Shown here piece after piece: positions 1 through 12,355 of a DNA stretch of 64,000 nucleotides. This DNA comes from Planctomycetota bacterium. Its GTDB lineage: Bacteria; Planctomycetota; SZUA-567. The stretch's first letter is position 1, and each line of letters begins with the position of its first letter. The notes under the pieces were generated by a model. The model was not told the origin of the DNA, did no database searches, and was given only the letters and a program-made list of their open reading frames with translations. The translations under genes and the position numbers were made by a program. The DNA lies in assembly GCA_963677015.1 (NCBI GenBank), contig OY781533.1, forward strand, positions 3,265,231-3,329,230, given 5' to 3'.

Positions 1-736
1 GTGCCAACGGATTCCTTACGACACCATACAAACCAGATACAAGTTTAATAAATCCTTTTTGCTCTCCTATTTCAGTGTCTGTTTTCAAGCTATTGATTTT
101 TATAAGCGGCTGTTTCACCGTAAATGCTGATTCAATCAGATTTACCCCATCACCTTCAAGCCCTGACAAGTCCCTTACCCTCTTGCTTATACTCTTCATT
201 GCTTCAAGCACAGTGTAAAAATAATTATCCGAAATTATCTCAAACAAGCTACATTCAATAATTATACTGTGAGTATTTCTATCCTCGAGCTTTCCTTTAA
301 ATCTATTTGCTCTCTCTATTGCTTCTTTTAATGTAGTAGCTTTAGCAGAACGAACAATCTTGCCTGACTCATTAACAGCATACCCTTCAAGAGCTAACAC
401 GGCATTCAACTTACTTCTTCTCTCTTCAAATTTACTACGATCTTTAGTATATTGCGCCGGATTCATAACATAATTAATTAATGAAATCACATGATTACCA
501 CACTGATATTTATTGCTAAAATTAGCCAAGGCGTTATACAGACGATCACGCTTATTAATAGAATTATAAAATCCAGGAGGTGCTTTAGTAATGCTATCAG
601 GAATCTGTAAATTCCCTAAAGCAAAATCAATTTCTTTATTGGTCAATCCTTCACTTGTATCACCAATAATATCTGACACAGTTCTTAATAGCTGCGAAGA
701 AAACAGAGGTATTAGATTATTAGTTTTTATAGCCAT
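1..736 (-). CDS. TIGR02391 (Hypoth_Ymh) family protein, C-terminus cut by window edge
   Basis: Not in the ORF track because no stop lies in the window. The reverse complement reads ATG (736..734) MAIKTNNLIPLFSSQLLRTV... and stays open to position 1. The distal part ...YFYTVLEAMKSISKRVRDLSGLEGDGVNLIESAF...GEQKGFIKLVSGLYGVVRNPLA fits my recollection of the TIGR02391 signature (AV.EA.K....VR...G..DG..L...AF ... G....L..G....RNP.AH). The family is commonly found next to type I R-M genes. Confidence 0.6.
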   Translation of the reverse strand, partial: MAIKTNNLIPLFSSQLLRTVSDIIGDTSEGLTNKEIDFALGNLQIPDSITKAPPGFYNSINKRDRLYNALANFSNKYQCGNHVISLINYVMNPAQYTKDRSKFEERRSKLNAVLALEGYAVNESGKIVRSAKATTLKEAIERANRFKGKLEDRNTHSIIIECSLFEIISDNYFYTVLEAMKSISKRVRDLSGLEGDGVNLIESAFTVKQPLIKINSLKTDTEIGEQKGFIKLVSGLYGVVRNPLA

Positions 737-1060
737 TAACTACTCCTAATAACATTTTCATTCACCCACAAAATTCATATCACTCAGATATTCCTAATAA
801 CAATCAAGCAAAACATACAGCCTCAAACCAGAGAACTTGACAAAACTCTTCTTCCACTGCAGTTCTGCTTCTTTCTAAATGCGCAACCGAGTCTTAATCC
901 CTTCAACTCCAGCTCTGATCTTCTCCTCTTTCTCTGAGTCAATTATCACACCCGCAATAATAAAGTACTCCGAAGCACCATCCTTCTCATGCTCAAGATC
1001 AGTATTCCCACATTCATCAAGGTACAAACTCTTAGCCACAGTACTCACAACCCAACTCCA

Positions 1061-2248
1061 TTATAACTCCCCATTAAACGCTCTCTGCATCAACGCCTCA
1101 AAATTATCCTCAAGCTCACACAGGGATTTCTGCATTCTTTCCTTCTCTGCTTCGATTGCTGCTACACGTTTGGCAAAGGTGTTTTGGAGGGCGAGTGGTG
1201 GACAAGGCACCTTAAACATACTGATCTGTTCTTTAGTTATTGCCTCTCTTGTTGCACCGCCACTTGTTGCAATTGAATATAAATATTGCTTATATGTATG
1301 ATTTATTATTGTATGCAGTAAGTATACTGAATTAATTTTTCCTTTATCTAAACGAATAATTGATACATGCTGATTTACCCTAGCAGGTAAAACATCTGTT
1401 GGCACTATTGCACACCTAGTCACAGAAGCACCAGTAATATTAAGTAACACATCATTTTCTTTAATTATCACATTAGAAAGCCTATTCGCTTGTTCATCAT
1501 TAATATATGCCAACTCATTATATACAAATCTATTATCATAAATATTCATACTTCTTATTAAGCTAATTCCTTCACTTTGATAAGCTTCTTTTCCACCTCT
1601 TGGAGTTGCTCCACTTCCTATTTTACTTGTCACATCTCCAAGGTTTACACAATCCCATCCCATAGGATTAGTCACAGGATCTCCAAACATATCATAAAAC
1701 AAACTCTTAACCAGCTCATCCATCTCAGCAAGCTGCTCCTTACGCTTATCAATCAACCCCTGCGCTCCATCCAACACCCCAACAATCCGCTCTTGCTCTG
1801 GAAGTAGAGGGAGTGGAATTTTAATATTTTTTAAAATTGCACCTGATATGTTTGGCTGTGCTCCTCCAACTCCCTGAGCAATTAAATTTATCTTATGCGA
1901 ACACATAAAACTATATAAAAATTCTGGTAATATTGCATCACATGGTAATATTGCTCCACAAGCCTGATTCGTAGCTGCTTCAATTCCCAAAATACTACAA
2001 TTTCCAATTGTTGCCCCATATAATGCAATAAGTACTGTATTAGCAGGAAATAGCTTTGCAGATGAATTATTCAAACCATCCTGAGTAATATACTCATCTG
2101 GCTCAAAAATATATTTACTTTTAAGATCACCAGTTTTTACCCAAGGAATATTTCCATTATCGTAGTATTCTCCATTTATCCTACTAGGGGTACCACCTGA
2201 TGTAATCGTTGCGAAGTCCCCAAGTTTTACTATTTCCCATTTATTCAT
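1061..2248 (-). CDS. hsdS: Type I restriction-modification specificity subunit HsdS
   Basis: 395 aa. N-terminal KLGDFATITSGGTPSR motif. Two variable target-recognition halves are each followed by a conserved helical spacer (LPLLPEQERIVGVLDGAQGLIDKRKEQLAEMDELVKSLFYDMF and PPLALQNTFAKRVAAIEAEKERMQKSLCELEDNFEALMQRAF). Same strand as hsdM and tightly packed with it. Confidence 0.9.
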   Translation of the reverse strand: MNKWEIVKLGDFATITSGGTPSRINGEYYDNGNIPWVKTGDLKSKYIFEPDEYITQDGLNNSSAKLFPANTVLIALYGATIGNCSILGIEAATNQACGAILPCDAILPEFLYSFMCSHKINLIAQGVGGAQPNISGAILKNIKIPLPLLPEQERIVGVLDGAQGLIDKRKEQLAEMDELVKSLFYDMFGDPVTNPMGWDCVNLGDVTSKIGSGATPRGGKEAYQSEGISLIRSMNIYDNRFVYNELAYINDEQANRLSNVIIKENDVLLNITGASVTRCAIVPTDVLPARVNQHVSIIRLDKGKINSVYLLHTIINHTYKQYLYSIATSGGATREAITKEQISMFKVPCPPLALQNTFAKRVAAIEAEKERMQKSLCELEDNFEALMQRAFNGEL

Positions 2249-2252
2249 TTAT

Positions 2253-3377
2253 TTAAACTCTCTTCTGCAAGTTTTTTTGACGCTCTTTTTTATACTTTTT
2301 CAGATCAATTTTAAGGGTTGGGTTATTTTCCAAAATTTCAACCAAAAACAAATAATCCGTACTATAATCATCAAACTCAAACTCAGAATCCTTAACATAA
2401 TCAGGATTAGAAAAATATTCTTTCCATGAAATTACAGATTTATTTACATGTCCCTTAGTACTATCGTAAATATGACTAGCCAGATTATTTGTAACAATAA
2501 ACTTCGATTTACAAAAAGTAATAAGACTTATTTCATTACCATCTACTGCAGTATTTATATCTTCAATAAGACAACCCAACTCTTCAAGCTTACAATGAAT
2601 CCCCCAAATACATTTACTAGGGTTATTACTAATACTATCTGATATTAATGAATCATGACAAGAAATTAAATTTTCCACTAGAATATTATCAACTTCATCA
2701 TATTCATGATATATACGTTTTATATTTAACCAAGCTTTAAAACACGTGAAATTTTTATCTTTAACATTTATTAAAAAAAACTTGATCTCTCTAAAATTAA
2801 CATTAATGTTAAATTCTTGATTACGCATCAAACGCGCAAGACGATTTATTCCATATTGGCGATTTTTTTCATCCTGTATTAACTCAAAAACATCTTCAAG
2901 CCTAGCGGCTTCCATAACTGCCTTTTTTATACTTTGTTCATGTTTGGAAGACTCTTTATCATTATGTCTCCAAATCCATAACACCCAAAAATATGGTGCA
3001 AGAATAATTGGTATAATAGACGCATGAGTGCTCATCATCATAACAATTGCTTGTTGGAATGTAAATCCAGCTAAGCTCCAGAACGGCTGATCAGGTAAAC
3101 TTCCACTAAAATATGCCCTACCAGAATCATCTACCTGTATACTATTTATAAGGTCAAGATAGTCATCAACAACAAATTCCGCTTTATAACAAGTTGACAA
3201 ATATGACAAATATAAATATACCATGCAACCAATCCCAAACATTACAAATGTTGCTATAACATTATGCTTACGCCCAAGCCTACCCAACCATGCTAATGGT
3301 CTATTTACATATTTACTATATGTTTGTCGGAACCAATCTCTAATTACTGTCATTTCATTAATTATTTTCTTTAACAA
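2253..3377 (-). CDS. Uncharacterised membrane protein, paralog A, nested in the hsd operon
   Basis: 374 aa. Hydrophobic segments at about aa 40-60 and 105-137. The last one ends in ILAPYFWVLWIWRHNDKE, shared with the upstream ORF. A ~230-aa soluble C-terminal region has no motif I recognise. There is a 4-nt gap to hsdS and a 17-nt gap to the upstream paralog. Confidence 0.6.
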   Translation of the reverse strand: MLKKIINEMTVIRDWFRQTYSKYVNRPLAWLGRLGRKHNVIATFVMFGIGCMVYLYLSYLSTCYKAEFVVDDYLDLINSIQVDDSGRAYFSGSLPDQPFWSLAGFTFQQAIVMMMSTHASIIPIILAPYFWVLWIWRHNDKESSKHEQSIKKAVMEAARLEDVFELIQDEKNRQYGINRLARLMRNQEFNINVNFREIKFFLINVKDKNFTCFKAWLNIKRIYHEYDEVDNILVENLISCHDSLISDSISNNPSKCIWGIHCKLEELGCLIEDINTAVDGNEISLITFCKSKFIVTNNLASHIYDSTKGHVNKSVISWKEYFSNPDYVKDSEFEFDDYSTDYLFLVEILENNPTLKIDLKKYKKERQKNLQKRV

Positions 3378-3394
3378 TCATAAAACAATACAAA

Positions 3395-4717
3395 CTAAAT
3401 AATCTCAAGTGTTTTATTTTTCTTCAAATTCATAATAAAAGCTTCATGAGATTCTGATAGATTAGAGTTCAATATAAACTTACAATCTTTCGCCAATTTT
3501 TCATCTTTTAATAAATCCATAACCTCCTTGTTCGCACCATGATGACTATTTACAATCCGACAATTATTAAATGAAACTTTCCAAGTGTCATCATAATAAA
3601 AATGATACCATTTAGACATATTATTTAAATCCTCAAGACAAAGTTCACAGTTATATAAGATCTTATTTACTAAATTTTTACTACCTAAATTGTTTTGAAA
3701 AGAGCATAAGTCATCCCATTTTATATCTTCAATTTTGATAATATACTTTGCCGTGTGCTTAGTAATAATTATAAATTTTCTTTGTAATTCTAATACAGCA
3801 AGGAAGGCGACACTTCTTATTCGCTTAACTCTAACACCTTTTTGCTTTTCATATTCAGCCCCGCACTCTTCTCCGTTTTCATTTTCAATAATTATTTCTT
3901 TAGCATTTATAAGAGCACAAATTGCTTGTTCACAATAAAACTCGAATTTCTTTTTTTTCTTATATTGAAACCAATTATCACTTGATAATTTCCTTGGTTC
4001 AAATCTACCAAGAAATTCATCTAACTTGTATATTCCTGTAGCTAACAAGCTATCGGAATTAGATCCTAACATCTCGAGAATACGATTAAATTCATTATAT
4101 TCATCCAATTGCTGTTCTCTAGATTTTGCATTTTCTTTATCATTATGACGCCAGACCCATAATACCCAAAAGTAAGGTGCTAAAATAATTGTTAATATAG
4201 ATGTTGGGTTGCTTATAATTATTCCTATAAGACTTTGAGCATCCTTAATGGATTTTAAAATACTTTGAGGAAAATCTAGTCCCATAACAATATCACTTTT
4301 TTCAAAAGAATAAATTGATATTGACTTAAAAATATAAAAAATTACTACCCCCCAGCATAACCCACAAAACGTAAAAATTACGGGGTGCTTTCTAAATATT
4401 GAATATACTAATAAATGAACTTTTAAAGGATATATCAATAGCAACAGAAATAGCAGCGCTTTATAATTATTTACAACATAATCATACTCTTTATAAATAA
4501 ACAAAACTGCATCAAAACTCTCATAGTTTAGCATTAATAAACAAGCTACACTAAATGAGATAAACAGAGCAAGCATTCCTAGAAATATATTTAACAATAA
4601 ATGTTGATTTATATAACTATAAACAATCATTACACGATCAGTCAATTCTGCTAATAAATTTGTTACTTTTAAAAAATATTTTTCCGGTTTATTGAAATTC
4701 CTTGAGTTATCACCCAT
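3395..4717 (-). CDS. Uncharacterised multi-pass membrane protein, paralog B, nested in the hsd operon
   Basis: 440 aa. It has about 4-5 hydrophobic segments, the last ending in ILAPYFWVLWVWRHNDKE. The soluble C-terminal region has a run of leucines at 5-residue spacing (NNLGS KNLVN KILYN CELCL EDLNN). The start overlaps the hsdM stop by 8 nt. Confidence 0.6.
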   Translation of the reverse strand: MGDNSRNFNKPEKYFLKVTNLLAELTDRVMIVYSYINQHLLLNIFLGMLALFISFSVACLLMLNYESFDAVLFIYKEYDYVVNNYKALLFLLLLIYPLKVHLLVYSIFRKHPVIFTFCGLCWGVVIFYIFKSISIYSFEKSDIVMGLDFPQSILKSIKDAQSLIGIIISNPTSILTIILAPYFWVLWVWRHNDKENAKSREQQLDEYNEFNRILEMLGSNSDSLLATGIYKLDEFLGRFEPRKLSSDNWFQYKKKKKFEFYCEQAICALINAKEIIIENENGEECGAEYEKQKGVRVKRIRSVAFLAVLELQRKFIIITKHTAKYIIKIEDIKWDDLCSFQNNLGSKNLVNKILYNCELCLEDLNNMSKWYHFYYDDTWKVSFNNCRIVNSHHGANKEVMDLLKDEKLAKDCKFILNSNLSESHEAFIMNLKKNKTLEII

Positions 4718-6200
4718 TATTCTTCTTTCTTCGCTCCTTTACAAGCATCTGCTGCAAATCTTGAATCCCTTTACTAATTTCTTTCTCCAGTCCTGCAACC
4801 CGCTCCAGTATTACCGCTGGCTCATCATATTGTACCTCTTCATAAACTATCTCTTTATACCGGTTGATCGACAGATCATACTCATTCTCAACAACCTCAC
4901 TAACCGGCACCAGAAATGACTGCTCCGTCCGCTTCCGCTTCTTCTCTTTCTCCAGCTTCCCGAACCGATCAATAATATCCGGTATATCAGAACTATCGAG
5001 CTTTGTTCGCTTATCATCCAGACTGTACCCGTCACTCTCCATATCATAAAACCAGATATTCTCCGTTCCCCCTATCCCGGTCTTATCGAATATCATCACC
5101 GCCGTACTCACTCCCGCATACGGCTTAAACACTCCACTCGGCATTGAGATAATAGCCCTCAGATTATGCTTCTGCACTATCTCCTCCCGCAACTTCTTAT
5201 GCGCCCCACTACTCCCAAATAACACCCCATCCGGCACAATACACGCACATCTCCCGCCCTTCTTGAGCATCTGTATCATCAGCGCCACAAATAGTAACTC
5301 CGTCTTCTTCGTCTTCGTCACCTTGAGTATATCCGCCGACACATCCTCATAATTCAGCGACCCCTTAAACGGCGGATTCGCCAGTATCAGCGTACACCTC
5401 TCCCGCTCATGATTATCCCCAGACAACGAATCACGATACTCAATATTCGGATTCTCTACCCCATGCAGCATCATATTCATCGCCCCAATCCGCAGCATCG
5501 TCGTATCAGTATCAAATCCAAAGAACATATCATTATTATAATGCTTCCGAAGCTTCTCGTTTTTAAATATCTCATCATGATACTCCTGCAGATATTCCCC
5601 GGCAGCAACTAAAAACCCAGACGTACCCGCCGCCGGATCAATTATCGTATCACTCGGCACCGGCTTCATCAAATCAACCATCATCCTGATAATATGCCGC
5701 GGTGTCCGAAACTGCCCATTCTGACCCGACGTCGCAATCTTTGACAAGAGATACTCATATAAATCCCCCTTTGCATCCTTACCCCTGATGTCTAGCTTAT
5801 CAATACTGGTCACAATCTTCTGCAGCATCCCAGCCTTCGGAATAGCAAATATCGCATCTTCCATATATTTAGAAAATGCCGATTCCTTATTCGCATGCAG
5901 ATTCTTGATAAACGCAAACACTCCATTCTTCGGATCAGTAAACAACTCAAACATCTTCTCCGCTGGCAAATGCTTGAAGTGACTCCATCTAAGTTCCCGC
6001 TTATCCTCAGGAAATATCTTCTTACTAACAGTACCCAGCAGCGCATCATTGCTATCCAATTCATTCTGTCTGTCATCCAAGCCTTTAATAAAGAGCAAAT
6101 ATGTAAACTGCTCAATCACCGTCATCGGATTAGCAATTCCTCCAGCCCAAAACACATCCCAAATCGCATCTATCTTATTTCTAAGTTCCCCAGTTATCAT
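4710..6200 (-). CDS. hsdM: Type I restriction-modification N6-adenine DNA methyltransferase subunit HsdM
   Basis: 496 aa. HsdM N-terminal-type region (LRNKIDAIWDVFWAGGIANPMTVIEQFTYLLFIKGLDD), AdoMet motif I IIDPAAGTSGFLV and catalytic motif IV LANPPF. Confidence 0.93.
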   Translation of the reverse strand: MITGELRNKIDAIWDVFWAGGIANPMTVIEQFTYLLFIKGLDDRQNELDSNDALLGTVSKKIFPEDKRELRWSHFKHLPAEKMFELFTDPKNGVFAFIKNLHANKESAFSKYMEDAIFAIPKAGMLQKIVTSIDKLDIRGKDAKGDLYEYLLSKIATSGQNGQFRTPRHIIRMMVDLMKPVPSDTIIDPAAGTSGFLVAAGEYLQEYHDEIFKNEKLRKHYNNDMFFGFDTDTTMLRIGAMNMMLHGVENPNIEYRDSLSGDNHERERCTLILANPPFKGSLNYEDVSADILKVTKTKKTELLFVALMIQMLKKGGRCACIVPDGVLFGSSGAHKKLREEIVQKHNLRAIISMPSGVFKPYAGVSTAVMIFDKTGIGGTENIWFYDMESDGYSLDDKRTKLDSSDIPDIIDRFGKLEKEKKRKRTEQSFLVPVSEVVENEYDLSINRYKEIVYEEVQYDEPAVILERVAGLEKEISKGIQDLQQMLVKERRKKNNG

Positions 6201-6373
6201 ACCAGCTCCCTAATATTATTCTAACTTACACTACCAATATACCACAATATAACATACTACCCTAATTTACTTTTCACGCAAGCAAAATACACACTCTCTA
6301 ACCCAAAGAAATGATAATATACTCACAACAACACATATCCTGCTATCAACCTCAAACTCTTATACGCCCTTAT

Positions 6374-6382
6374 ATTATACCA
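6374..6382 (-). promoter_or_regulatory. Candidate extended -10 promoter element (TGgTATAAT) for the hsdM operon
   Basis: The reverse complement of 6371..6382 reads TGGTATAATATA. This is a perfect TATAAT preceded by TGn, about 175 nt upstream of the hsdM ATG. No good -35 was found. Sigma-70-like specificity in this organism is assumed. Confidence 0.3.
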
Positions 6383-6574
6383 AATTAACCATTCACGACA
6401 CGTTCAAATCATAATACCAAATAATCAAATAACCTTAACCAACAAATTATAAATTAAACATAATAGCGATAATTAATACATTTTAAAATTTGAATCAAAT
6501 CATACAAATATGTATTATTGTAAATTATAGCGCACATTAGTAATACTTATTGACATACTATTTAAGGAGATATC

Positions 6575-7762
6575 ATGCTAAGCAAGGCAATTAATTTAAC
6601 TGTAAAGACTTTATTAAAATTAACAGAAATAACAAAAAAAATACTAATAAAATGTGGATTTAAAGGATTTTTACCTAATAAATCAAAAAATTCAGAATTC
6701 ATATATGGAACAATTGAAGTTGATTCTTCTGGCGCTAAATATTTACAAAATATCAATCCTCACGAAGACAACATTACTGAATTTCCAAAAGACTTTAAAT
6801 CTACCATTATTGAAGGTGACAAGGTTGTTGTAAGTAGAAAGTATTGGAGTACAGATGAGCCAATCACTGAGACATTTGTCAACTGCAAAAATATAAAAGC
6901 TGGTGTTTATGCTAGCAAAAAATACCCTTTAAGTGGTAAAATTTTTAAGCTCCTAAACAATATTTACTATATTGTTTCATACTATTCAATAACCTCATTT
7001 TTCTTAACATTATTGGCATGTTATATAAAAACCGAAAACCTTATAAATAATGATATCTTCATAAACTGCTTAGGATATTTGACATTAATTCCATTATTTT
7101 TGTTCGGATTATACAGATCTTTAGCCTACCCCACAAAAAATAAAAGTCTGTTCGAGCTGACAGATAGAATTTTTAATAACTTAGGAGTGTTGTTTATCAT
7201 AATTGCAATTATACTTTATGTCGCGACAAACTTTATGAATAACATCGAATGTATTTTACTAGGCTTTACTCAAATTTTAGGAGTACATATTTATTACTTT
7301 GCATACCTAAAACGAAAAATTAAGCAAACACGAATAATATTAACAAACATGAAAGAAAATTTTGATAGTAACTCTATTCAAAAAGCAAAGATATTTAACC
7401 TTGAGCCAATATGCTCGAATAAAACTGAAAAATTAGAACCAAATATAACTAATATTAATATTGTTAAATCTACAACAAATATTGATTCATCTAATACTAC
7501 TTCAGTTTCAAATACCAACTATAATAATGAATATCAAATTCAGCCAACTAAAAATTCTGACAATAAAAAAGATATGCCCAGTAAAGAAACAATTAGTGCA
7601 GTTCTTGAAACATTATTTCAAGCAAAAAACGATAAAATACGATTTGAAGGATTAAAGGATATCGCCTCAAAATCTGGTTATAGCGAGCCAACCGTCAGCA
7701 AAGTTCTTAAAATACTAAGGGAAAGATATGATTTTGATGGAAAATGGAATTTAAAAGCCTAA
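6575..7762 (+). CDS. Hypothetical membrane protein with Asn/Ser/Thr-rich linker and C-terminal winged-helix-like tail
   Basis: 395 aa. AGGAG lies 7 nt before the ATG. It has about 4 hydrophobic helices (aa ~130-245) and a low-complexity N/S/T stretch (aa ~290-330). The C-terminus ETISAVLETLFQAKNDKIRFEGLKDIASKSGYSEPTVSKVLKILRERYD looks like a wHTH. A hairpin terminator follows. Confidence 0.5.
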   Translation: MLSKAINLTVKTLLKLTEITKKILIKCGFKGFLPNKSKNSEFIYGTIEVDSSGAKYLQNINPHEDNITEFPKDFKSTIIEGDKVVVSRKYWSTDEPITETFVNCKNIKAGVYASKKYPLSGKIFKLLNNIYYIVSYYSITSFFLTLLACYIKTENLINNDIFINCLGYLTLIPLFLFGLYRSLAYPTKNKSLFELTDRIFNNLGVLFIIIAIILYVATNFMNNIECILLGFTQILGVHIYYFAYLKRKIKQTRIILTNMKENFDSNSIQKAKIFNLEPICSNKTEKLEPNITNINIVKSTTNIDSSNTTSVSNTNYNNEYQIQPTKNSDNKKDMPSKETISAVLETLFQAKNDKIRFEGLKDIASKSGYSEPTVSKVLKILRERYDFDGKWNLKA

Positions 7763-7817
7763 AAATCATATCCGAAACTCCTGAAATTTTAAATATTTTC
7801 ATTTTATTTTATAAAAT

Positions 7818-7850
7818 AAAGCCCTGTTTTTGCAGGGCTTTATTTATTTA
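7818..7850 (+). terminator. Rho-independent terminator
   Basis: aaaGCCCTG-tttttg-CAGGGCttt followed by a T-rich tract, 55 nt after the stop of the 6575..7762 ORF. Confidence 0.7.
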
Positions 7851-7983
7851 ACTTTCGGCGAAAAAAGCGAAACTTGAATATCCCAAAAACAGACTATAAA
7901 CTCATAACATCAACACTGTCAATAAGATTGCAATATATTTAACTACATACAATTTGATTAACTAGCTTAAATTGGAGAAATAA

Positions 7984-8409
7984 ATGACACCAAAAATAAA
8001 CTTCATTCATACAAGAACAGGATGCTATGGATTACAACTTGCAGAACAAGGATTAATTAAAGCAACCGCTCTTGCTGTCCTCATTGCTCTAGCTTCATTC
8101 GTTGATGGTTCAACCATGACAACAAGTATAGACCAAGCCAGCCTTGCTAAACGCGCAGGTGTCTCACTTGAAACATTAAGACGACAATTAAGAATACTAG
8201 AAAAAGTCGGTATTCTTACAACGATAAGGCGTTTTGCCAGAAGCAATATTTATAAAATCAATCCATTGAAATCTGGTGAAAACAGTGCAACTGGTAACCC
8301 CCAAAATAATGGAAATATTACCCTCAAACGTAGTGACTATTCAATAACCAATATCATTTCTAAAAACAGAAATGATGATTTACCAGATATTCGCGCAACT
8401 ACATACTAA
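7984..8409 (+). CDS. Helix-turn-helix protein, possible island replication initiator/regulator
   Basis: 141 aa. GGAG lies before the ATG. The segment SIDQASLAKRAGVSLETLRRQLRILEKVGILTTIRR is a typical wHTH (MarR/replication-O-like). It lies directly upstream of the DnaB-type helicase. Its last 208 bp are part of the 304-bp tandem duplication. Confidence 0.5.
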   Translation: MTPKINFIHTRTGCYGLQLAEQGLIKATALAVLIALASFVDGSTMTTSIDQASLAKRAGVSLETLRRQLRILEKVGILTTIRRFARSNIYKINPLKSGENSATGNPQNNGNITLKRSDYSITNIISKNRNDDLPDIRATTY

Positions 8410-8812
8410 TTCACCCAACAAACTAAACCTAATATGAAGTCAAACCATGGAGGATACATATGTTTATTAGTAGCTACTATCTTTATTTTTATTATTTTAA
8501 AGCACAAAAGTCGGTATTCTTACAACGATAAGGCGTTTTGCCAGAAGCAATATTTATAAAATCAATCCATTGAAATCTGGTGAAAACAGTGCAACTGGTA
8601 ACCCCCAAAATAATGGAAATATTACCCTCAAACGTAGTGACTATTCAATAACCAATATCATTTCTAAAAACAGAAATGATGATTTACCAGATATTCGCGC
8701 AACTACATACTAATTCACCCAACAAACTAAACCTAATATGAAGTCAAACCATGGAGGATACATATGTTTATTAGTAGCTACTATCTTTATTTTTATTATT
8801 TTAAAGCACAAA
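8202..8812. repeat. Perfect tandem direct duplication, period 304 bp (copy 1 8202..8505, copy 2 8506..8809, plus 3-nt aaa junction overlap)
   Basis: Manual alignment: 8202..8508 is identical to 8506..8812 with no mismatch seen. Mismatches occur immediately outside, at 8201 vs 8505 and at 8509 vs 8813. The unit holds the 3' end and stop of the HTH gene plus the intergenic region up to the helicase RBS. Confidence 0.9.
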
Positions 8813-8821
8813 GGAGTATCT

Positions 8822-10147
8822 ATGAATTCCGGCGAAGAACTTAGCCCAAAACATGAGACAGAAATCTGCATTTTAGGAGGTATTCTGCTCAAACCTGACG
8901 TTATTATAGAAGTCAGGCCAATAATAAAACCCTGTTATTTCTCAGTTTATGTGTACCAAAAGACATATGAAATCATATTAAAACTTTATGATGAAGGTGG
9001 TTTCGATGAGATAATTCTGGAGCAAGAACTTAGAAAGAATGGAATTGATGTAGGTGGAAAAAATGCTATTTCAGATTGGATGACCCTAGCAGTAACAGCT
9101 TACCAAACTGTTCCTCATGCTAAAAAACTTGTGGAACAATGGAAGGAGCGAGAGTTTGAAAAAACTTGCTATGATTCTCTGGAAAAGCTATCAGGATCGG
9201 ATCATATTAATCAAATATACGAAGATCATACACAGAAGATCAGCGAACTAGCATTCCAAGGTTTCAGTAGAACAATGTCTGCAAAAGAAGTAGTTAAGCA
9301 TAATAGAAGAGCCAACAGGCTTTCTCCAGTCAATACAGGATACAAAGCACTAAACGACTACTTTGGAGATGGTTTAGATCGTGGCACAGTCACAATTATT
9401 GGAGGTTCTACCTCTATAGGAAAGTCCCAAATGGCTTTAAACATTATTCGTAAGACATGTAACAACCAAGCATCTACTCGCTGCTTATACATTGTTCAAG
9501 AAATGAACCCTGAATCTGTCGAAGATAGACTTGTATCAACAATATCAGGAATTCCACAAGGTGTCTGTAAACTTCTTAGACTAAAATCTGATGAATCAAA
9601 TGACAGATATAAATCAATTACTGAAAAGTATTCTGATGATTATAATACTGCTGTCAAAGATTTTTCTAATATGCAACTGTATATACATGCCGAAGGGACA
9701 ATTACAGCGCAAGAGTTCAGAAATATCGTAGCAAAATACAACAAAAAAGTCGACCTTATAGTGCTAGATTATCTCCAGCAATGCCGAGAAAGTCGCTCTG
9801 GTCAAGAACCAAGAGAAAGAATTGATGAAATCTCGCGAACATGCAAACACATTGCTACCTTGCATAATGTTGCAGTAATTGCGCTTGCTCAGCTTTCCCG
9901 TGATGGGGCTAAAGCAGGCAATCAGAATGACAATGGGAGACCTAAACTCTGGCATCTAAAGGAGTCTAGTTCAATTGAGCAAGATGCCGATCATGTAATA
10001 CTACTGTATCGCAAAAACGCTAAACAAGCAGAATCAGAGACAATAGAACTTGATATCTGCAAAAACAGGCACGGTCAAACAGGCAGACTAAACTTTATTT
10101 TTAACCTAAATACTGGGATCATAGAAGATCCTATGGAGGACAATTAA
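8822..10147 (+). CDS. DnaB-family replicative DNA helicase (island/phage type)
   Basis: DnaB N-terminal-type ETEICILGGILLKPDVI, Walker A GGSTSIGKSQMALN, Walker B LIVLDYLQ, and the ALAQLSR and IEQDADHVILLYR motifs. Start moved to ATG 8822 (AAGGAG 6 nt upstream). The track start at 8738 adds a hydrophobic 28-aa leader lying inside the duplicated segment. Confidence 0.82.
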   Translation: MNSGEELSPKHETEICILGGILLKPDVIIEVRPIIKPCYFSVYVYQKTYEIILKLYDEGGFDEIILEQELRKNGIDVGGKNAISDWMTLAVTAYQTVPHAKKLVEQWKEREFEKTCYDSLEKLSGSDHINQIYEDHTQKISELAFQGFSRTMSAKEVVKHNRRANRLSPVNTGYKALNDYFGDGLDRGTVTIIGGSTSIGKSQMALNIIRKTCNNQASTRCLYIVQEMNPESVEDRLVSTISGIPQGVCKLLRLKSDESNDRYKSITEKYSDDYNTAVKDFSNMQLYIHAEGTITAQEFRNIVAKYNKKVDLIVLDYLQQCRESRSGQEPRERIDEISRTCKHIATLHNVAVIALAQLSRDGAKAGNQNDNGRPKLWHLKESSSIEQDADHVILLYRKNAKQAESETIELDICKNRHGQTGRLNFIFNLNTGIIEDPMEDN

Positions 10148-10148
10148 A

Positions 10149-10457
10149 ATGACAAACAACACTTTAAAACCTAATGAACAACTAGTTATTAATTCAAATC
10201 TTGAAGATTTTGCAAATATGATTTCAGAAGCGTTTGAATCAACTCTTAAAAAGCAGAACAAACTCCTACTAACACAGAAAGAAACTGCAGAATTTCTAGG
10301 CATCAGTGAATCAACACTAAAATCGCTTCGCTCAATGGGTAAAATCCCTGCCCCTATTACAATCTGTCGGCGAAATCTCTGGAGTAAAGAAGAACTAATT
10401 GCATGGGTAAATGCAGGATGCCCAAACAAGTATGACTGGGAAGATTTAACTGCATAA
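10149..10457 (+). CDS. Excisionase/AlpA-like helix-turn-helix DNA-binding protein
   Basis: 102 aa. LLTQKETAEFLGISESTLKSLRSMGKIPAPI....NLWSKEELIAWV matches the excisionase-family HTH pattern. It starts 2 nt after the helicase stop and lies upstream of the integrase. Confidence 0.6.
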   Translation: MTNNTLKPNEQLVINSNLEDFANMISEAFESTLKKQNKLLLTQKETAEFLGISESTLKSLRSMGKIPAPITICRRNLWSKEELIAWVNAGCPNKYDWEDLTA

Positions 10458-10542
10458 ATTGACATATTAAACTTGCAAAAATATACTCCTTGGGGAAAAT
10501 TAGAAATACTAATTATCTCTAATCAAATCCAAGGAGTATTTC

Positions 10543-10810: not shown

Positions 10811-12355
10811 ATGAGCTTAAATAAACTAAAAAGCGGAAAATACGAACTAAGCCTATACCTAAAAATTGGCGGTCGCATACGTACCGTAACATACGCAGAT
10901 AAACGAGCAGCAAAGAAGTTTGAAGAAAATATTTCTACACTTGATGCCTGCCTGGTCACAGGTGAACGCCCTGATAGAGAACTTACAATCTGGCTTGAAA
11001 ATCTTCCAACCAATATGAAAAAGAAACTAGTCAAACACAGACTGCTCTCACAGTCACAGCTTGAGAAGTCTCGAACTATCAAATCTCACCTCAGAGATTT
11101 TATACAGTATCAAAATGACCAAGCAACCAAAGGCAAGCTTCAGCCACGCCAAGTAAATTTACTCAACACTAGATTAGATAGAATGATCAAGGATTGTAAT
11201 TTTAAATATGCTCGTGATATATCCGGTAACAAAGTTGACTCTTGGATGACCAATATGTACCAAACCAAATTATCAGCTAAATCCTGCAATCACTACCTTC
11301 AAGCAATGAAGCAGTTCTGTAAATGGCTAACAGATAATAATCGACTACAGGAAAACACCGTCAAGACTCTCAAACCTATCAGACTAAATTCTGAAAATAC
11401 AGAGCAGCGTCGTGCATTGACAGAAAACGAAATCACACGACTCATCATAACAACCATGCGGTCAAAAAAGAAACACAATAAATTGACCGGATTGGAGAGG
11501 TCACTTGTCTACCGCCTAGCACTTGAAACAGGACTGAGACACAATGAAATCCGCACACTGAAACGCGGAGACTTCGACTTAATAAATATGTCTGTAACCG
11601 TCAGAGACGTCAATTCAAAGAATAGCAAGACCGACACCCTTCCGCTTCGCCCAGAACTCGCTACAGCCCTACAGGATTACTTTAGAGACACCCCTGCTCT
11701 ACCAAGCGCGCAAGCATTTATTAACATGCAACCCAAGACAGGTGCATCTATGCTTCGTAGAGACCTCGAACAAGCAGAAATTGAATATGAAAATGAAGAC
11801 GGAACAGCAGATTTTCATGCATTACGTCATACCTTTTGCTCACTACTAGCCCGTAGCGGTGTCCAGCCACAGACGGCACAACGTCTAATGCGACACAGTG
11901 ATATCAACCTCACAATGAAGCATTACACCCATATTCTCTTAGATGACAAGAGGATGGCGGTATCTGCGCTACCCAAGATTAATTTTAGCAGAGAAATCAA
12001 AGAAGCGACAGGAACTGAAGACGTTGCAAATTTAGGCAGATTTCAGTCCATGTCAGATATAAATGATTCTGCCTATATTCTGCCTAATTCGGCGACTAGC
12101 ACAGATATCTCAAAGGCTGAATTTAGGCAGATTGAGAAACCCGAAAAAAGCCAAATCGCTAACAAAAACACTAGTAATACCGGCAAAAACCCTATAAAAA
12201 CAAGGGTCAACGGCACATTAAATACCATTGACCCAAGTGATACAAATTGGTGGGCAAGACGGGACTTGAACCCGTACGAGAAAAAATCTCAAGGGATTTT
12301 AAATCCCTTGCGTCTGCCGATTCCGCCACTCGCCCGTTATTTCAATAACTTTTGA
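10811..12355 (+). CDS. Tyrosine recombinase / phage-type integrase
   Basis: 514 aa. Catalytic-domain motifs ETGLRHNEIRTL (Arg I), HALRHTF (His-x-x-Arg) and MRHSDINLTMKHYTHI (His ... catalytic Tyr372). The ORF stays open about 140 aa past the Tyr. Its last 36 codons are antisense to the tRNA-Leu gene. Confidence 0.85.
   Translation: MSLNKLKSGKYELSLYLKIGGRIRTVTYADKRAAKKFEENISTLDACLVTGERPDRELTIWLENLPTNMKKKLVKHRLLSQSQLEKSRTIKSHLRDFIQYQNDQATKGKLQPRQVNLLNTRLDRMIKDCNFKYARDISGNKVDSWMTNMYQTKLSAKSCNHYLQAMKQFCKWLTDNNRLQENTVKTLKPIRLNSENTEQRRALTENEITRLIITTMRSKKKHNKLTGLERSLVYRLALETGLRHNEIRTLKRGDFDLINMSVTVRDVNSKNSKTDTLPLRPELATALQDYFRDTPALPSAQAFINMQPKTGASMLRRDLEQAEIEYENEDGTADFHALRHTFCSLLARSGVQPQTAQRLMRHSDINLTMKHYTHILLDDKRMAVSALPKINFSREIKEATGTEDVANLGRFQSMSDINDSAYILPNSATSTDISKAEFRQIEKPEKSQIANKNTSNTGKNPIKTRVNGTLNTIDPSDTNWWARRDLNPYEKKSQGILNPLRLPIPPLARYFNNF
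12248..12335 (-). tRNA. tRNA-Leu (anticodon UAA), class II with long variable arm, CCA encoded
   Basis: Reverse complement: GGGCGAG-TG-GCG-GAATCGGCAGA-CGC-A-AGGGA-TTTAAAA-TCCCT-TGAGATTTTTTCTCGT-ACGGG-TTCAAGT-CCCGT-CTTGCCC-A-CCA. The acceptor has 7 bp (one G-U). The anticodon loop is TT-TAA-AA. The T-loop is canonical GTTCAAGTC. The variable stem is GAGA/TCTC. Confidence 0.88.

Follow-up and report, generated by a model that had tools for sequence, protein, structure and literature searches.

Genes at the hsdM-hsdS locus

The window analysed here is a stretch of 64,000 nucleotides (nt) from a Planctomycetota bacterium (NCBI GenBank assembly GCA_963677015.1, contig OY781533.1, positions 3,265,231 to 3,329,230). 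Near its left end, on the minus strand, lies a type I restriction-modification (R-M) operon in which two genes for putative membrane proteins, ORF-A and ORF-B (ORF, open reading frame), are placed between hsdM and hsdS. An earlier reading of the DNA letters, below called the original prediction, had singled out this pair as a candidate sensor/effector module coupled to restriction. The features of the operon are listed below with their positions in the window (aa, amino acids; TM, transmembrane).

4710-6200, minus strand: hsdM, type I R-M methyltransferase subunit, 496 aa (PF02384, E 3.4e-65; PF12161; PADLOC MTase_I, E 1.8e-185)
3395-4717, minus strand: ORF-A, 440 aa, about four predicted TM helices, an invariant joint and a cytoplasmic domain
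4151-4717, minus strand: predicted membrane module of ORF-A, aa 1-189 (hydropathy, charge counts)
4133-4186, minus strand: invariant joint of ORF-A, ILAPYFWVLWVWRHNDKE, end of the last TM helix and juxtamembrane residues
3398-4150, minus strand: predicted cytoplasmic module of ORF-A, aa 190-440 (AlphaFold, C-module comparison)
2253-3377, minus strand: ORF-B, 374 aa, TTG start, two predicted TM helices, the invariant joint and a cytoplasmic domain
2952-3005, minus strand: invariant joint of ORF-B, ILAPYFWVLWIWRHNDKE
2256-2969, minus strand: predicted cytoplasmic module of ORF-B, aa 137-374 (alignment A3)
1061-2248, minus strand: hsdS, type I specificity subunit, 395 aa (two PF01420 domains, E 6.2e-42; PADLOC Specificity_I, E 7.4e-81)

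On the minus strand the genes are thus read in the order hsdM, ORF-A, ORF-B, hsdS, and the type I core is present, with an HsdM_N domain in HsdM and two target-recognition domains (TRDs) in HsdS. The hsdM TGA ends at 4710 and the ORF-A ATG lies at 4717, which gives an 8-nt overlap; 17 nt separate the TAG of ORF-A from the first possible start of ORF-B, a TTG directly after an in-frame TGA, and 4 nt separate the TAA of ORF-B from the ATG of hsdS. These distances and the lengths of 440 and 374 aa agree with those first reported. No terminator-like site was found between the genes on the coding strand. Of the original claim that the four genes form one packed transcription unit, the packing therefore stands, while transcription as a single unit is consistent with the data.

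Both ORFs are real genes and not chance reading frames. In DNA of 28-30% GC the stop probability is 0.092 per codon, so that one stop is expected per about 11 codons, and the chance of a stop-free run is about 4e-19 for the 440 codons of ORF-A and about 2e-16 for the 374 codons of ORF-B. ORF-A is identical to the public protein P0001. The public gene call of ORF-B, P0002, uses an alternative start, the ATG at 3353, which gives 366 aa; the longer TTG form is plausible because a relative, P0006, also begins MLKKII. The GC content of the two genes (28-30%) differs from the 45% of hsdM and of the chromosome, and their GC content at third codon positions (GC3) is 0.22 as compared with 0.53 in hsdM. 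Over window positions 1-10500 the GC3 of hsdM is chromosome-like, and that of hsdS, ORF-A, ORF-B and the other island genes lies at 0.22-0.29. This composition suggests a conserved methylase core accompanied by AT-rich, often exchanged passengers.

An invariant joint between two variable modules

As originally proposed, ORF-A and ORF-B are divergent paralogs: besides the ORF statistics, BLASTP aligns them with an E value of 3e-14 and 36% identity over about 115 aa, and nothing else in the two proteins aligns. The core of this alignment is the common block ILAPYFWVLW[IV]WRHNDKE, in which 17 of 18 residues and 44 of 54 nt are identical between the two copies; at the DNA level, a repeat finder reports an 89-nt repeat (D1, 76% similar) at 4134-4222 and 2953-3041. 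The earlier description of an 18-residue block at the end of the last helix, with the remainder barely alignable, was borne out by these comparisons. From hydropathy and counts of charged residues, the block is placed where the last TM helix of each protein meets the cytoplasm.

The N-terminal hydrophobic helices described before are likewise present, about four in ORF-A (residues ~38-60, 87-107, 114-134 and 162-189) and two in ORF-B (39-60 and 109-136). In ORF-B the N-terminal tail carries 9 Lys and Arg residues, and the 48-aa loop between the helices has 2 Lys and Arg against 7 Asp and Glu. The predicted topology of ORF-B is therefore N-in/C-in, and from its charges ORF-A is predicted to be oriented likewise. 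Because of this positive-inside pattern, the large C-terminal parts (A190-440 and B137-374) are probably cytoplasmic. A short, putatively cytoplasmic loop of ORF-A, FRKHPV, represents a family-wide G-R-x-x-P-[VI] motif that precedes the penultimate helix.

The block Arg is encoded by CGT in one copy and by AGA in the other, from which the original prediction had argued that the block is held by selection. The same is seen on a larger scale in ten distinct gene copies, where the block uses five Arg codons and three codons each for Leu, Val, Pro and Ala. Given this free synonymous variation, the invariance of the block must be selected at the protein level. We also considered the block as a conserved DNA recombination site and rejected this, since synonymous sites vary freely and identical runs are short. 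The identical DNA runs across the block are only 14-21 nt long; nonetheless, past crossovers map to it. The helix that follows the block, noted earlier as L(G/I)....GI(Y/N).L, is kept across the family (L..GI.xL), and its Gly (G228 of ORF-A) is invariant in the 8-member alignment A1. Together, the RH..E joint and the helix F..I....GS....L..GI..L, common to all members, form the most conserved part that faces the cytoplasm.

For the relatives described below, each protein was split at the block and the N- and C-terminal halves were compared separately. The best relatives of the two halves differ in the following four cases.

P0004 (locus L002): N-module like P0003 and P0011 (55-62% over about 135 aa); C-module like P0009 (62% over 232 aa), whose N-module is unalignable with that of P0004
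L006 gene (P0011 and P0007): N-module P0004-like; C-module P0005-like (51% over 254 aa), the N-module being unrelated to that of P0005 (26% over 84 aa)
P0010: N-module P0006-like; C-module P0008-like (65%), the N-module being unrelated to that of P0008 (score 39)
ORF-A: N-module with no clear match; C-module like P0006 (35% over 247 aa), whose N-module is unlike that of ORF-A

By sliding-window identity, the switch of best relative falls within 20-30 columns that contain the block. On these comparisons, N- and C-modules have been reassorted at least four times, with the switch at the block. The best relatives of the ORF-B C-module are the first copy at L009 and P0003 (33%) and the second copy at L009 (37% over 109 aa).

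The family members are only 25-35% identical to each other, whereas HsdM is 89-99% identical across loci (89-96% between the window and the related loci). In HsdS of the window the TRDs are 16-39% identical to those of the related loci and the conserved regions 74-89%. The range of 16-39% for TRDs holds across all loci with one exception: the HsdS proteins of L002 (11158-12291) and L009 (9238-10394) share TRD2 at 93% and TRD1 at 27% identity, the usual pattern when one of two specificity domains has been exchanged. We looked for co-variation between the HsdS TRDs and the C-module encoded next to hsdS and saw none. Between the first copies of L001 and L009, which are nearly identical, the C-module differs by 5 synonymous and 7 non-synonymous changes and the N-module by none, which is too few for a ratio of non-synonymous to synonymous rates. 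In addition, the tandem paralogs of L001 (block at 10415-10474 and 11824-11883) both read RHNN[S/T]E instead of RHNDKE, with an identical run of 21 nt. This shared variant hints at gene conversion, or at co-variation if the two copies contact each other. Taken as a whole, the rapid diversification of the family and the frequent inactivation of its genes, described below, look like conflict-type evolution.

Predicted structures give some indication of what the cytoplasmic half may be. The AlphaFold model of full-length ORF-A has a mean predicted local distance difference test score (pLDDT) of 70, low in the membrane part, and that of the cytoplasmic module alone (A190-440) reaches a pLDDT of 84.9 and a predicted TM-score (pTM) of 0.82. 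In the model the last TM helix is continuous with a cytoplasmic helix of about 30 residues. The module itself consists of this long stalk helix, two or three more long helices and then an alpha/beta region, in which short strands alternate with helices. Foldseek returned nothing below E 1e-3, either for the full-length model against PDB and BFVD or for the cytoplasmic model against PDB; a confident match to a housekeeping family, which would have spoken against the original prediction, was thus not found in these databases. The top PDB match of the cytoplasmic model is the HEAT domain CLASP2 TOG1 (E 0.11, probability 0.92, TM-score 0.24-0.29), followed by CRM1, beta-catenin and designed ARM proteins. 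Pfam HEAT models do not match ORF-A or ORF-B. The module is described here, tentatively, as HEAT/ARM-like helices followed by an alpha/beta domain. In the C-module alignment A3, F194 is invariant and Q123 and N245 are nearly invariant, with no others. An enzymatic role is unlikely, because catalytic sites usually rely on acidic, basic or His residues, and these three positions hold none.

The exact 5-residue spacing of leucines that the original prediction had pointed out in ORF-A exists (residues ~343-367), but the likeness to pentapeptide-repeat proteins drawn from it is not supported. This segment is helix/strand/helix in the model and its spacing is not conserved in relatives. Pentapeptide models gave no match at E<=1 in ORF-A, ORF-B or any of the 14 family members, while a 106-aa ORF of L006, used as positive control, scores 26.4 bits with PF00805 (cutoff 20.2). 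Profile self-comparison revealed no internal repeats (best off-diagonal P 0.78). Lacking a Pfam match and an internal repeat, and with an alpha/beta model instead of a beta-helix, the pentapeptide-repeat assignment was rejected. A leucine-rich repeat (LRR) protein was considered too, since LRR-like strand motifs are visible by eye in ORF-A (VSFNNCRIV, KFILNSNL and ILYNCEL, 24-30 aa apart). This was also rejected: there is no Pfam LRR match and no internal repeat, and Foldseek matches to the LRR of NLR (nucleotide-binding and leucine-rich repeat) proteins have a probability of <=0.12 and a TM-score of <=0.23.

A remaining likeness is to a group of actinobacterial proteins with a '...AIEQLGSDKLDVRIGGIYALERIARDS...' module, which we take to be membrane-anchored pentapeptide-repeat proteins and of which short fragments were compared. 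This module aligns with the post-joint helix-turn-helix FNRILEMLGSNSDSLLATGIYKLDEF over 31 columns. With hhalign, the post-block helix FNRILEMLGS....L..GIYKLDEF and the actinobacterial HEAT-like module give a P value of 5e-4 and a probability of 31%, below the safe threshold for homology, and even the P value is flattering because the actinobacterial template was picked for looking similar. The likeness amounts to a single HEAT-like hairpin, and the domain downstream of it in ORF-A and ORF-B is not a pentapeptide beta-helix.

The family and its genomic contexts

A word-indexed search of 5.8 billion proteins with ORF-A returned only ORF-A itself, and the same search with ORF-B returned seven proteins, one of which is the public call of ORF-B. 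A profile built from eight members was run with HMMER against 1.84 billion cluster representatives and gave 16 matches, namely 14 real members (several of them fragments) and two spurious repetitive proteins (P0015 and P0016). All traceable members come from a few closely related genome assemblies of about 3.8 Mb. When one genome per GTDB species was considered, motif-bearing genes were found only in the chromosomes of two Planctomycetota metagenome-assembled genomes, OY780932.1 and OY763323.1, and no further loci turned up in JGI metagenome contigs or IMG/VR. Neither Pfam nor NCBIfam has a credible match for ORF-A or ORF-B, and a search of PDB chain sequences with the family profile gave no match at E<=10. 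In PHROGs, residues 109-241 of ORF-B match phrog_6169 with an E value of 1e-4. This match was treated as due to chance, because the 13 other members lack it and a tblastn search of 50,697 phage records found nothing in its support. The earlier statement that no characterised family can be assigned is therefore upheld, and ORF-A and ORF-B, as judged from these searches, belong to a tiny, lineage-restricted and previously undescribed protein family.

The original prediction had also suggested a survey of the genomic surroundings of block-bearing homologues. Members lie between hsdM and hsdS at five loci (the window, L001, L002/L005, L006 and L009), in two tandem copies in the window, L001 and L009; the rest are linked to integrases, one of them beside a defence-candidate gene. 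The gene orders are as follows, with family members in square brackets.

L001: hsdM, [P0003], [P0009], hsdS, DUF3800, TM protein, ThsB-like TIR, hsdR
L002/L005: hsdM, nucleotidyltransferase pair (PF08780 and NTP_transf_2), [P0004], hsdS, 103 aa, TIR, hsdR
L006: hsdM, [P0011, IS3 transposase, P0007], pentapeptide ORF, hsdS, TM protein, 103 aa, TIR, hsdR
L009/L010: hsdM, [383 aa], [P0013 and P0012, frameshifted], hsdS (split), DUF3800 remnants, PDC-M36A, hsdR
L003/L004: integrase, [P0005], DUF3800; no hsd genes
L008: [P0010], integrase; no hsd genes
L007: [P0008] beside integrase genes; no hsd genes

In L001, L002, L006 and L009, hsdR lies 2-4 kb downstream of hsdS, and HsdR of L001 matches PADLOC REase_I with an E value of 4.8e-159. 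Neighbours in these loci and in the island match several defence models, including ThsB1 (8e-87), PDC-M04A (DUF3800), PDC-M36A, PDC-S09 and PD-Lambda-3_B. The survey supports a defence neighbourhood for the family, within one narrow lineage and one type of island. Broken copies are frequent: there is an insertion sequence (IS) of the IS3 type in L006, a frameshift in L009, and the short forms P0008 and P0010. The IS3-family insertion in L006 (8276-10804, with transposase ORFs of 94 and 296 aa) splits the family gene exactly within the last TM helix, P0011 being the N-terminal part and P0007 the C-terminal part.

Several neighbours of the family deserve a mention in their own right. The ORF of L006 used above as positive control (10821-11141, plus strand) is a genuine pentapeptide-repeat ORF that separates the family gene from hsdS. 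Its occurrence in a restriction operon is curious, given that proteins of this kind can act as DNA mimics. ThsB-like TIR proteins lie between hsdS and hsdR in L001 (15070-16966; the copy with the ThsB1 match), L006 (12673-14538) and L002 (12432-13706). Upstream of TIR there is a membrane protein of 187-199 aa in L001 and L006 and a 103-aa ORF in L002 and L006. TIR and the membrane protein may form a Thoeris-like pair that has a membrane effector and lacks canonical ThsA. These membrane proteins carry a look-alike juxtamembrane motif (W.KHRD.KE) but were rejected as relatives of the family, with an hhalign probability of 0.2%. In L002, an NTase_sub_bind protein (PF08780) and an NTP_transf_2 protein are inserted between hsdM and the family gene (8874-9616); the latter has matches to PADLOC PDC-S09 and, unexpectedly, to the N-terminal end of a Specificity_I model.

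The operon of the window is itself part of an integrative island, of which the remaining features on both sides of the operon are listed here.

1-736, minus strand: PD-Lambda-3_B-like gene with a Hypoth_Ymh (HEPN-type) domain (PADLOC, E 1.1e-66; PF09509, E 1.3e-23), running off the window start
797-1048, minus strand: truncated DUF3800 (PDC-M04A-like) remnant (tblastn, E 1e-23), frame broken
6575-7762, plus strand: 395-aa protein with several hydrophobic helices, divergent from hsdM
7984-8409, plus strand: HTH_36 protein (Pfam)
8738-10147, plus strand: DnaB-like helicase (Pfam)
10149-10457, plus strand: HTH_17 excisionase-like protein (Pfam)
10811-12355, plus strand: tyrosine integrase, reading into tRNA-Leu
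12248-12335, minus strand: tRNA-Leu(taa)

The insertion site of the island is the 3' end of tRNA-Leu(taa), from which the island extends leftwards past the window start. Beyond the tRNA, the neighbours (a DksA-like zinc finger protein, a diaminopimelate (DAP) epimerase, a CBM9 protein and an AAA ATPase) are shared with L002-L004 and L008. With the same chromosomal neighbours in all of these, the site is a recurrent insertion hotspot, at which related genomes hold different cargo. The DUF3800 remnant aligns with residues 1-124 of an intact 396-aa protein of L001, which matches PADLOC PDC-M04A. A PD-Lambda-3 partner, if present, would lie beyond position 1. The 395-aa membrane protein has no family assignment; its C-terminus shows a weak match to helix-turn-helix proteins (LacI/MarR, E 0.025-0.3).

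Possible function and comparison with known systems

From the sequence, ORF-A and ORF-B appear to be bitopic inner-membrane proteins, encoded as cargo within the type I R-M operon of an integrative defence island at tRNA-Leu. Given their observed architecture, their embedding and the shuffling of their modules, we infer an immune role, and tentatively favour the possibility that they are membrane-anchored sensor/effectors with an accessory anti-phage or defence function, which would serve as a backup to restriction. Each protein has three parts. A variable N-terminal module with 2-4 predicted TM helices leads into the invariant joint [AST]PYFWVLW[IV]WRH, which runs on as a rigid stalk helix, and a variable cytoplasmic module, apparently without enzymatic activity, follows. 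This last module would bind a protein of phage origin or sense in what state the HsdM/HsdS complex is, and the signal would pass via the joint and stalk to the membrane module, which may oligomerise and compromise the membrane, leading to abortive infection or growth arrest. As an adaptor common to all members, the joint could thereby allow each membrane half to work with each cytoplasmic half, and genes in tandem could supply the material for new combinations. In its most specific form, the proteins would be guardians that fire when a phage anti-restriction protein disables the R-M enzyme; this detail, drawn by analogy with PrrC and Ronin (see below), we hold more tentatively than the general role. 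Less probable again is the most far-reaching version, an unlikely one as it stands, in which the family forms a combinatorial, cassette-type membrane immune receptor, with PYFWVLW[IV]WRH as universal adaptor and tandem genes as donor pool, mirroring the shuffling of TRDs in hsdS and guarding R-M against anti-restriction factors.

Several observations weigh against the sensor/effector role or its coupling to restriction. First, ORF-A and ORF-B show no homology to validated defence proteins and match no family of PADLOC-DB v2.0.0 at E<=1, although this library includes PDC candidate models and neighbouring genes match it strongly. Second, no hsdR was found in the 1060 nt downstream of hsdS, up to the window end. 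Third, L003/L004, L007 and L008 keep a family gene with no hsd genes nearby; because of these three loci, either R-M coupling is not obligatory or the hsd-free copies are relics. Fourth, the C-modules of P0009 and P0004 are 62% identical, yet the TRDs of the respective HsdS proteins are only 26-28% identical, so that the type of C-module does not track the type of TRD, and the conserved HsdM would hardly explain the diversification of the C-modules. Fifth, the membrane modules, which might form pores, are modelled with low confidence. Finally, all members come from very few uncultured genomes that are close relatives of one another, and the five loci, which might otherwise be counted as independent, share ancestry and one island type.

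The proteins could instead be lineage-specific island cargo outside immunity, such as a membrane toxin, an addiction element or a factor of island biology, for which the R-M operon is merely a permissive slot. We regard this as unlikely. It would suit the extreme orphan status of the family (14 members in 1.84 billion representatives, with the contigs of JGI metagenomes and IMG/VR holding none), its AT-rich, foreign-like composition and the frequent pseudogenisation, and the hsdM-hsdS slot of relatives has also taken up a small pentapeptide ORF, a pair of nucleotidyltransferase genes and an IS element. However, the joint is under protein-level selection across all copies, long intact ORFs are kept in several genomes, and nearly all other passengers of these operons match known or candidate defence models.

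The strict position between hsdM and hsdS, with overlapping or abutting frames, suggests co-production with the enzyme, and the conserved joint and first helices could bind HsdM (89-99% identical) or the conserved regions of HsdS. On these grounds one could propose a membrane tether or an assembly or regulatory factor with no killing activity, which would anchor HsdM/HsdS, or the complete enzyme, to the inner membrane at the point of entry of foreign DNA, or modulate restriction versus modification. Membrane association of EcoKI was indeed reported by older fractionation work. Nevertheless, such a role seems improbable to us: the cytoplasmic bulk of the proteins has diverged to 25-35% identity and been shuffled, which is unexpected if their partner is a conserved enzyme; L003/L004, L007 and L008 have retained copies but no hsd genes; the copy number is one or two; and disrupted copies are common beside intact hsdM and hsdS genes (L006). 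To our knowledge, no type I R-M system requires such a subunit. Superinfection exclusion, in which the inner-membrane proteins would hinder translocation of phage or plasmid DNA independently of R-M and hitch-hike in the operon, is also doubtful, for while they lie on an integrase-bearing island, are variable and shuffled as exclusion determinants often are, and have relatives beside integrases with no R-M genes, about 60% of each protein is a structured, putatively cytoplasmic domain and the periplasmic loops are 26-48 aa long, which fits an intracellular sensor better, and this role would leave the repeated insertion at exactly the hsdM-hsdS junction to coincidence.

If the sensor/effector role is correct, a family without relatives joins the immunity genes nested in restriction operons, and ORF-A and ORF-B would add to the phage defences of Planctomycetota, which are little explored. 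The invariant hinge with its reassorting halves would then be a natural experiment on coupling a membrane effector to interchangeable intracellular sensors, in which hinge mutants and module swaps give a handle on signal transmission in such fusions. Should the guardian version be true, the PrrC/Ronin principle of a backup killer that watches the restriction enzyme would extend to a new architecture. If the proteins instead tether the enzyme to the membrane, this would be new for type I systems as well.

One of the closest known systems is Ronin (Silas et al., bioRxiv 10.1101/2023.04.06.535777), in which a short TM peptide encoded in linkage with hsdM and hsdS is kept in check by HsdMS until anti-restriction proteins set it off. 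Like ORF-A and ORF-B, it is a membrane protein tightly linked to hsdM and hsdS, often beside an integrase. By its description, RonA is a 61-aa protein with a single helix and no cytoplasmic domain, whereas ORF-A and ORF-B have 374-440 aa, 2-4 predicted helices and a cytoplasmic domain of 240-250 aa. Ronin occurs without hsdR, and the window has no hsdR in the 1 kb downstream of hsdS; the related loci do carry hsdR.

PrrC is embedded in EcoprrI, and the R-M enzyme of the host is both its inhibitor and its sensor (PMC12707154). According to Payne et al., PrrC is almost exclusively embedded in type I R-M systems (bioRxiv 10.1101/2024.01.29.577857). The original prediction had drawn on this example, and PrrC and RloC indeed share with ORF-A and ORF-B their placement inside a type I hsd operon. 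The position is not the same, as prrC sits between hsdS and hsdR and not between hsdM and hsdS. Moreover, PrrC is a soluble fusion of an ABC-ATPase and an anticodon nuclease, whereas ORF-A and ORF-B are predicted membrane proteins that start with TM helices, have no such match in PADLOC, Pfam or NCBIfam, and have no conserved residues of a catalytic type.

Guilt by embedding has led to other defence systems. Payne et al. validated seven embedded systems and considered most genes that lie within Hma, BREX, DISARM or type I R-M systems to be likely defences, more than half of them unassigned (bioRxiv 10.1101/2024.01.29.577857), and TgvAB is embedded in the type I R-M system of V. cholerae VPI-2 (PMC11411939). 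As in these HEC/PDC and TgvAB cases, ORF-A and ORF-B are uncharacterised genes nested in a defence operon, sometimes as a two-gene cassette. Unlike TgvAB, they are not GmrSD-like nucleases, and they match no PDC or HEC model in PADLOC-DB.

In terms of layout, analogues are found among single-chain proteins that fuse an N-terminal TM effector to a C-terminal cytoplasmic ligand-binding sensor, such as Cam1 and Csx23 of type III CRISPR, PycTM of Pycsar and TM-SAVED proteins of CBASS. ORF-A and ORF-B have the same predicted layout. The sensors of these proteins are CARF, SAVED or cyclic nucleotide monophosphate (cNMP)-binding domains, which read nucleotide second messengers from a partner enzyme. 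In contrast, the cytoplasmic module of ORF-A and ORF-B has no match to CARF, SAVED or cNMP domains, and no signal-generating enzyme is evident.

In terms of evolution, short conserved motifs that demarcate variable modules are familiar from VENN of CdiA, PxxxxDPxGL of Rhs and the TRD swapping of HsdS. As in those polymorphic cassette proteins, the module phylogenies of the family are incongruent with a breakpoint at the motif, tandem copies are possible donors, and the neighbouring hsdS evolves in the same mode. Ongoing recombination at the motif is not inferred, because DNA identity is modest and identical runs are only 14-21 nt. The family differs from polymorphic toxins in that both halves are variable, the motif lies inside a TM helix and there is no toxin/immunity pair. 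In kind, an accessory, probably defensive gene nested in a restriction operon is already known. What is new, in the libraries and literature searched, is the protein family and its organisation of shuffled halves around an invariant joint, together with a predicted fold that is new as far as PDB and BFVD are concerned.

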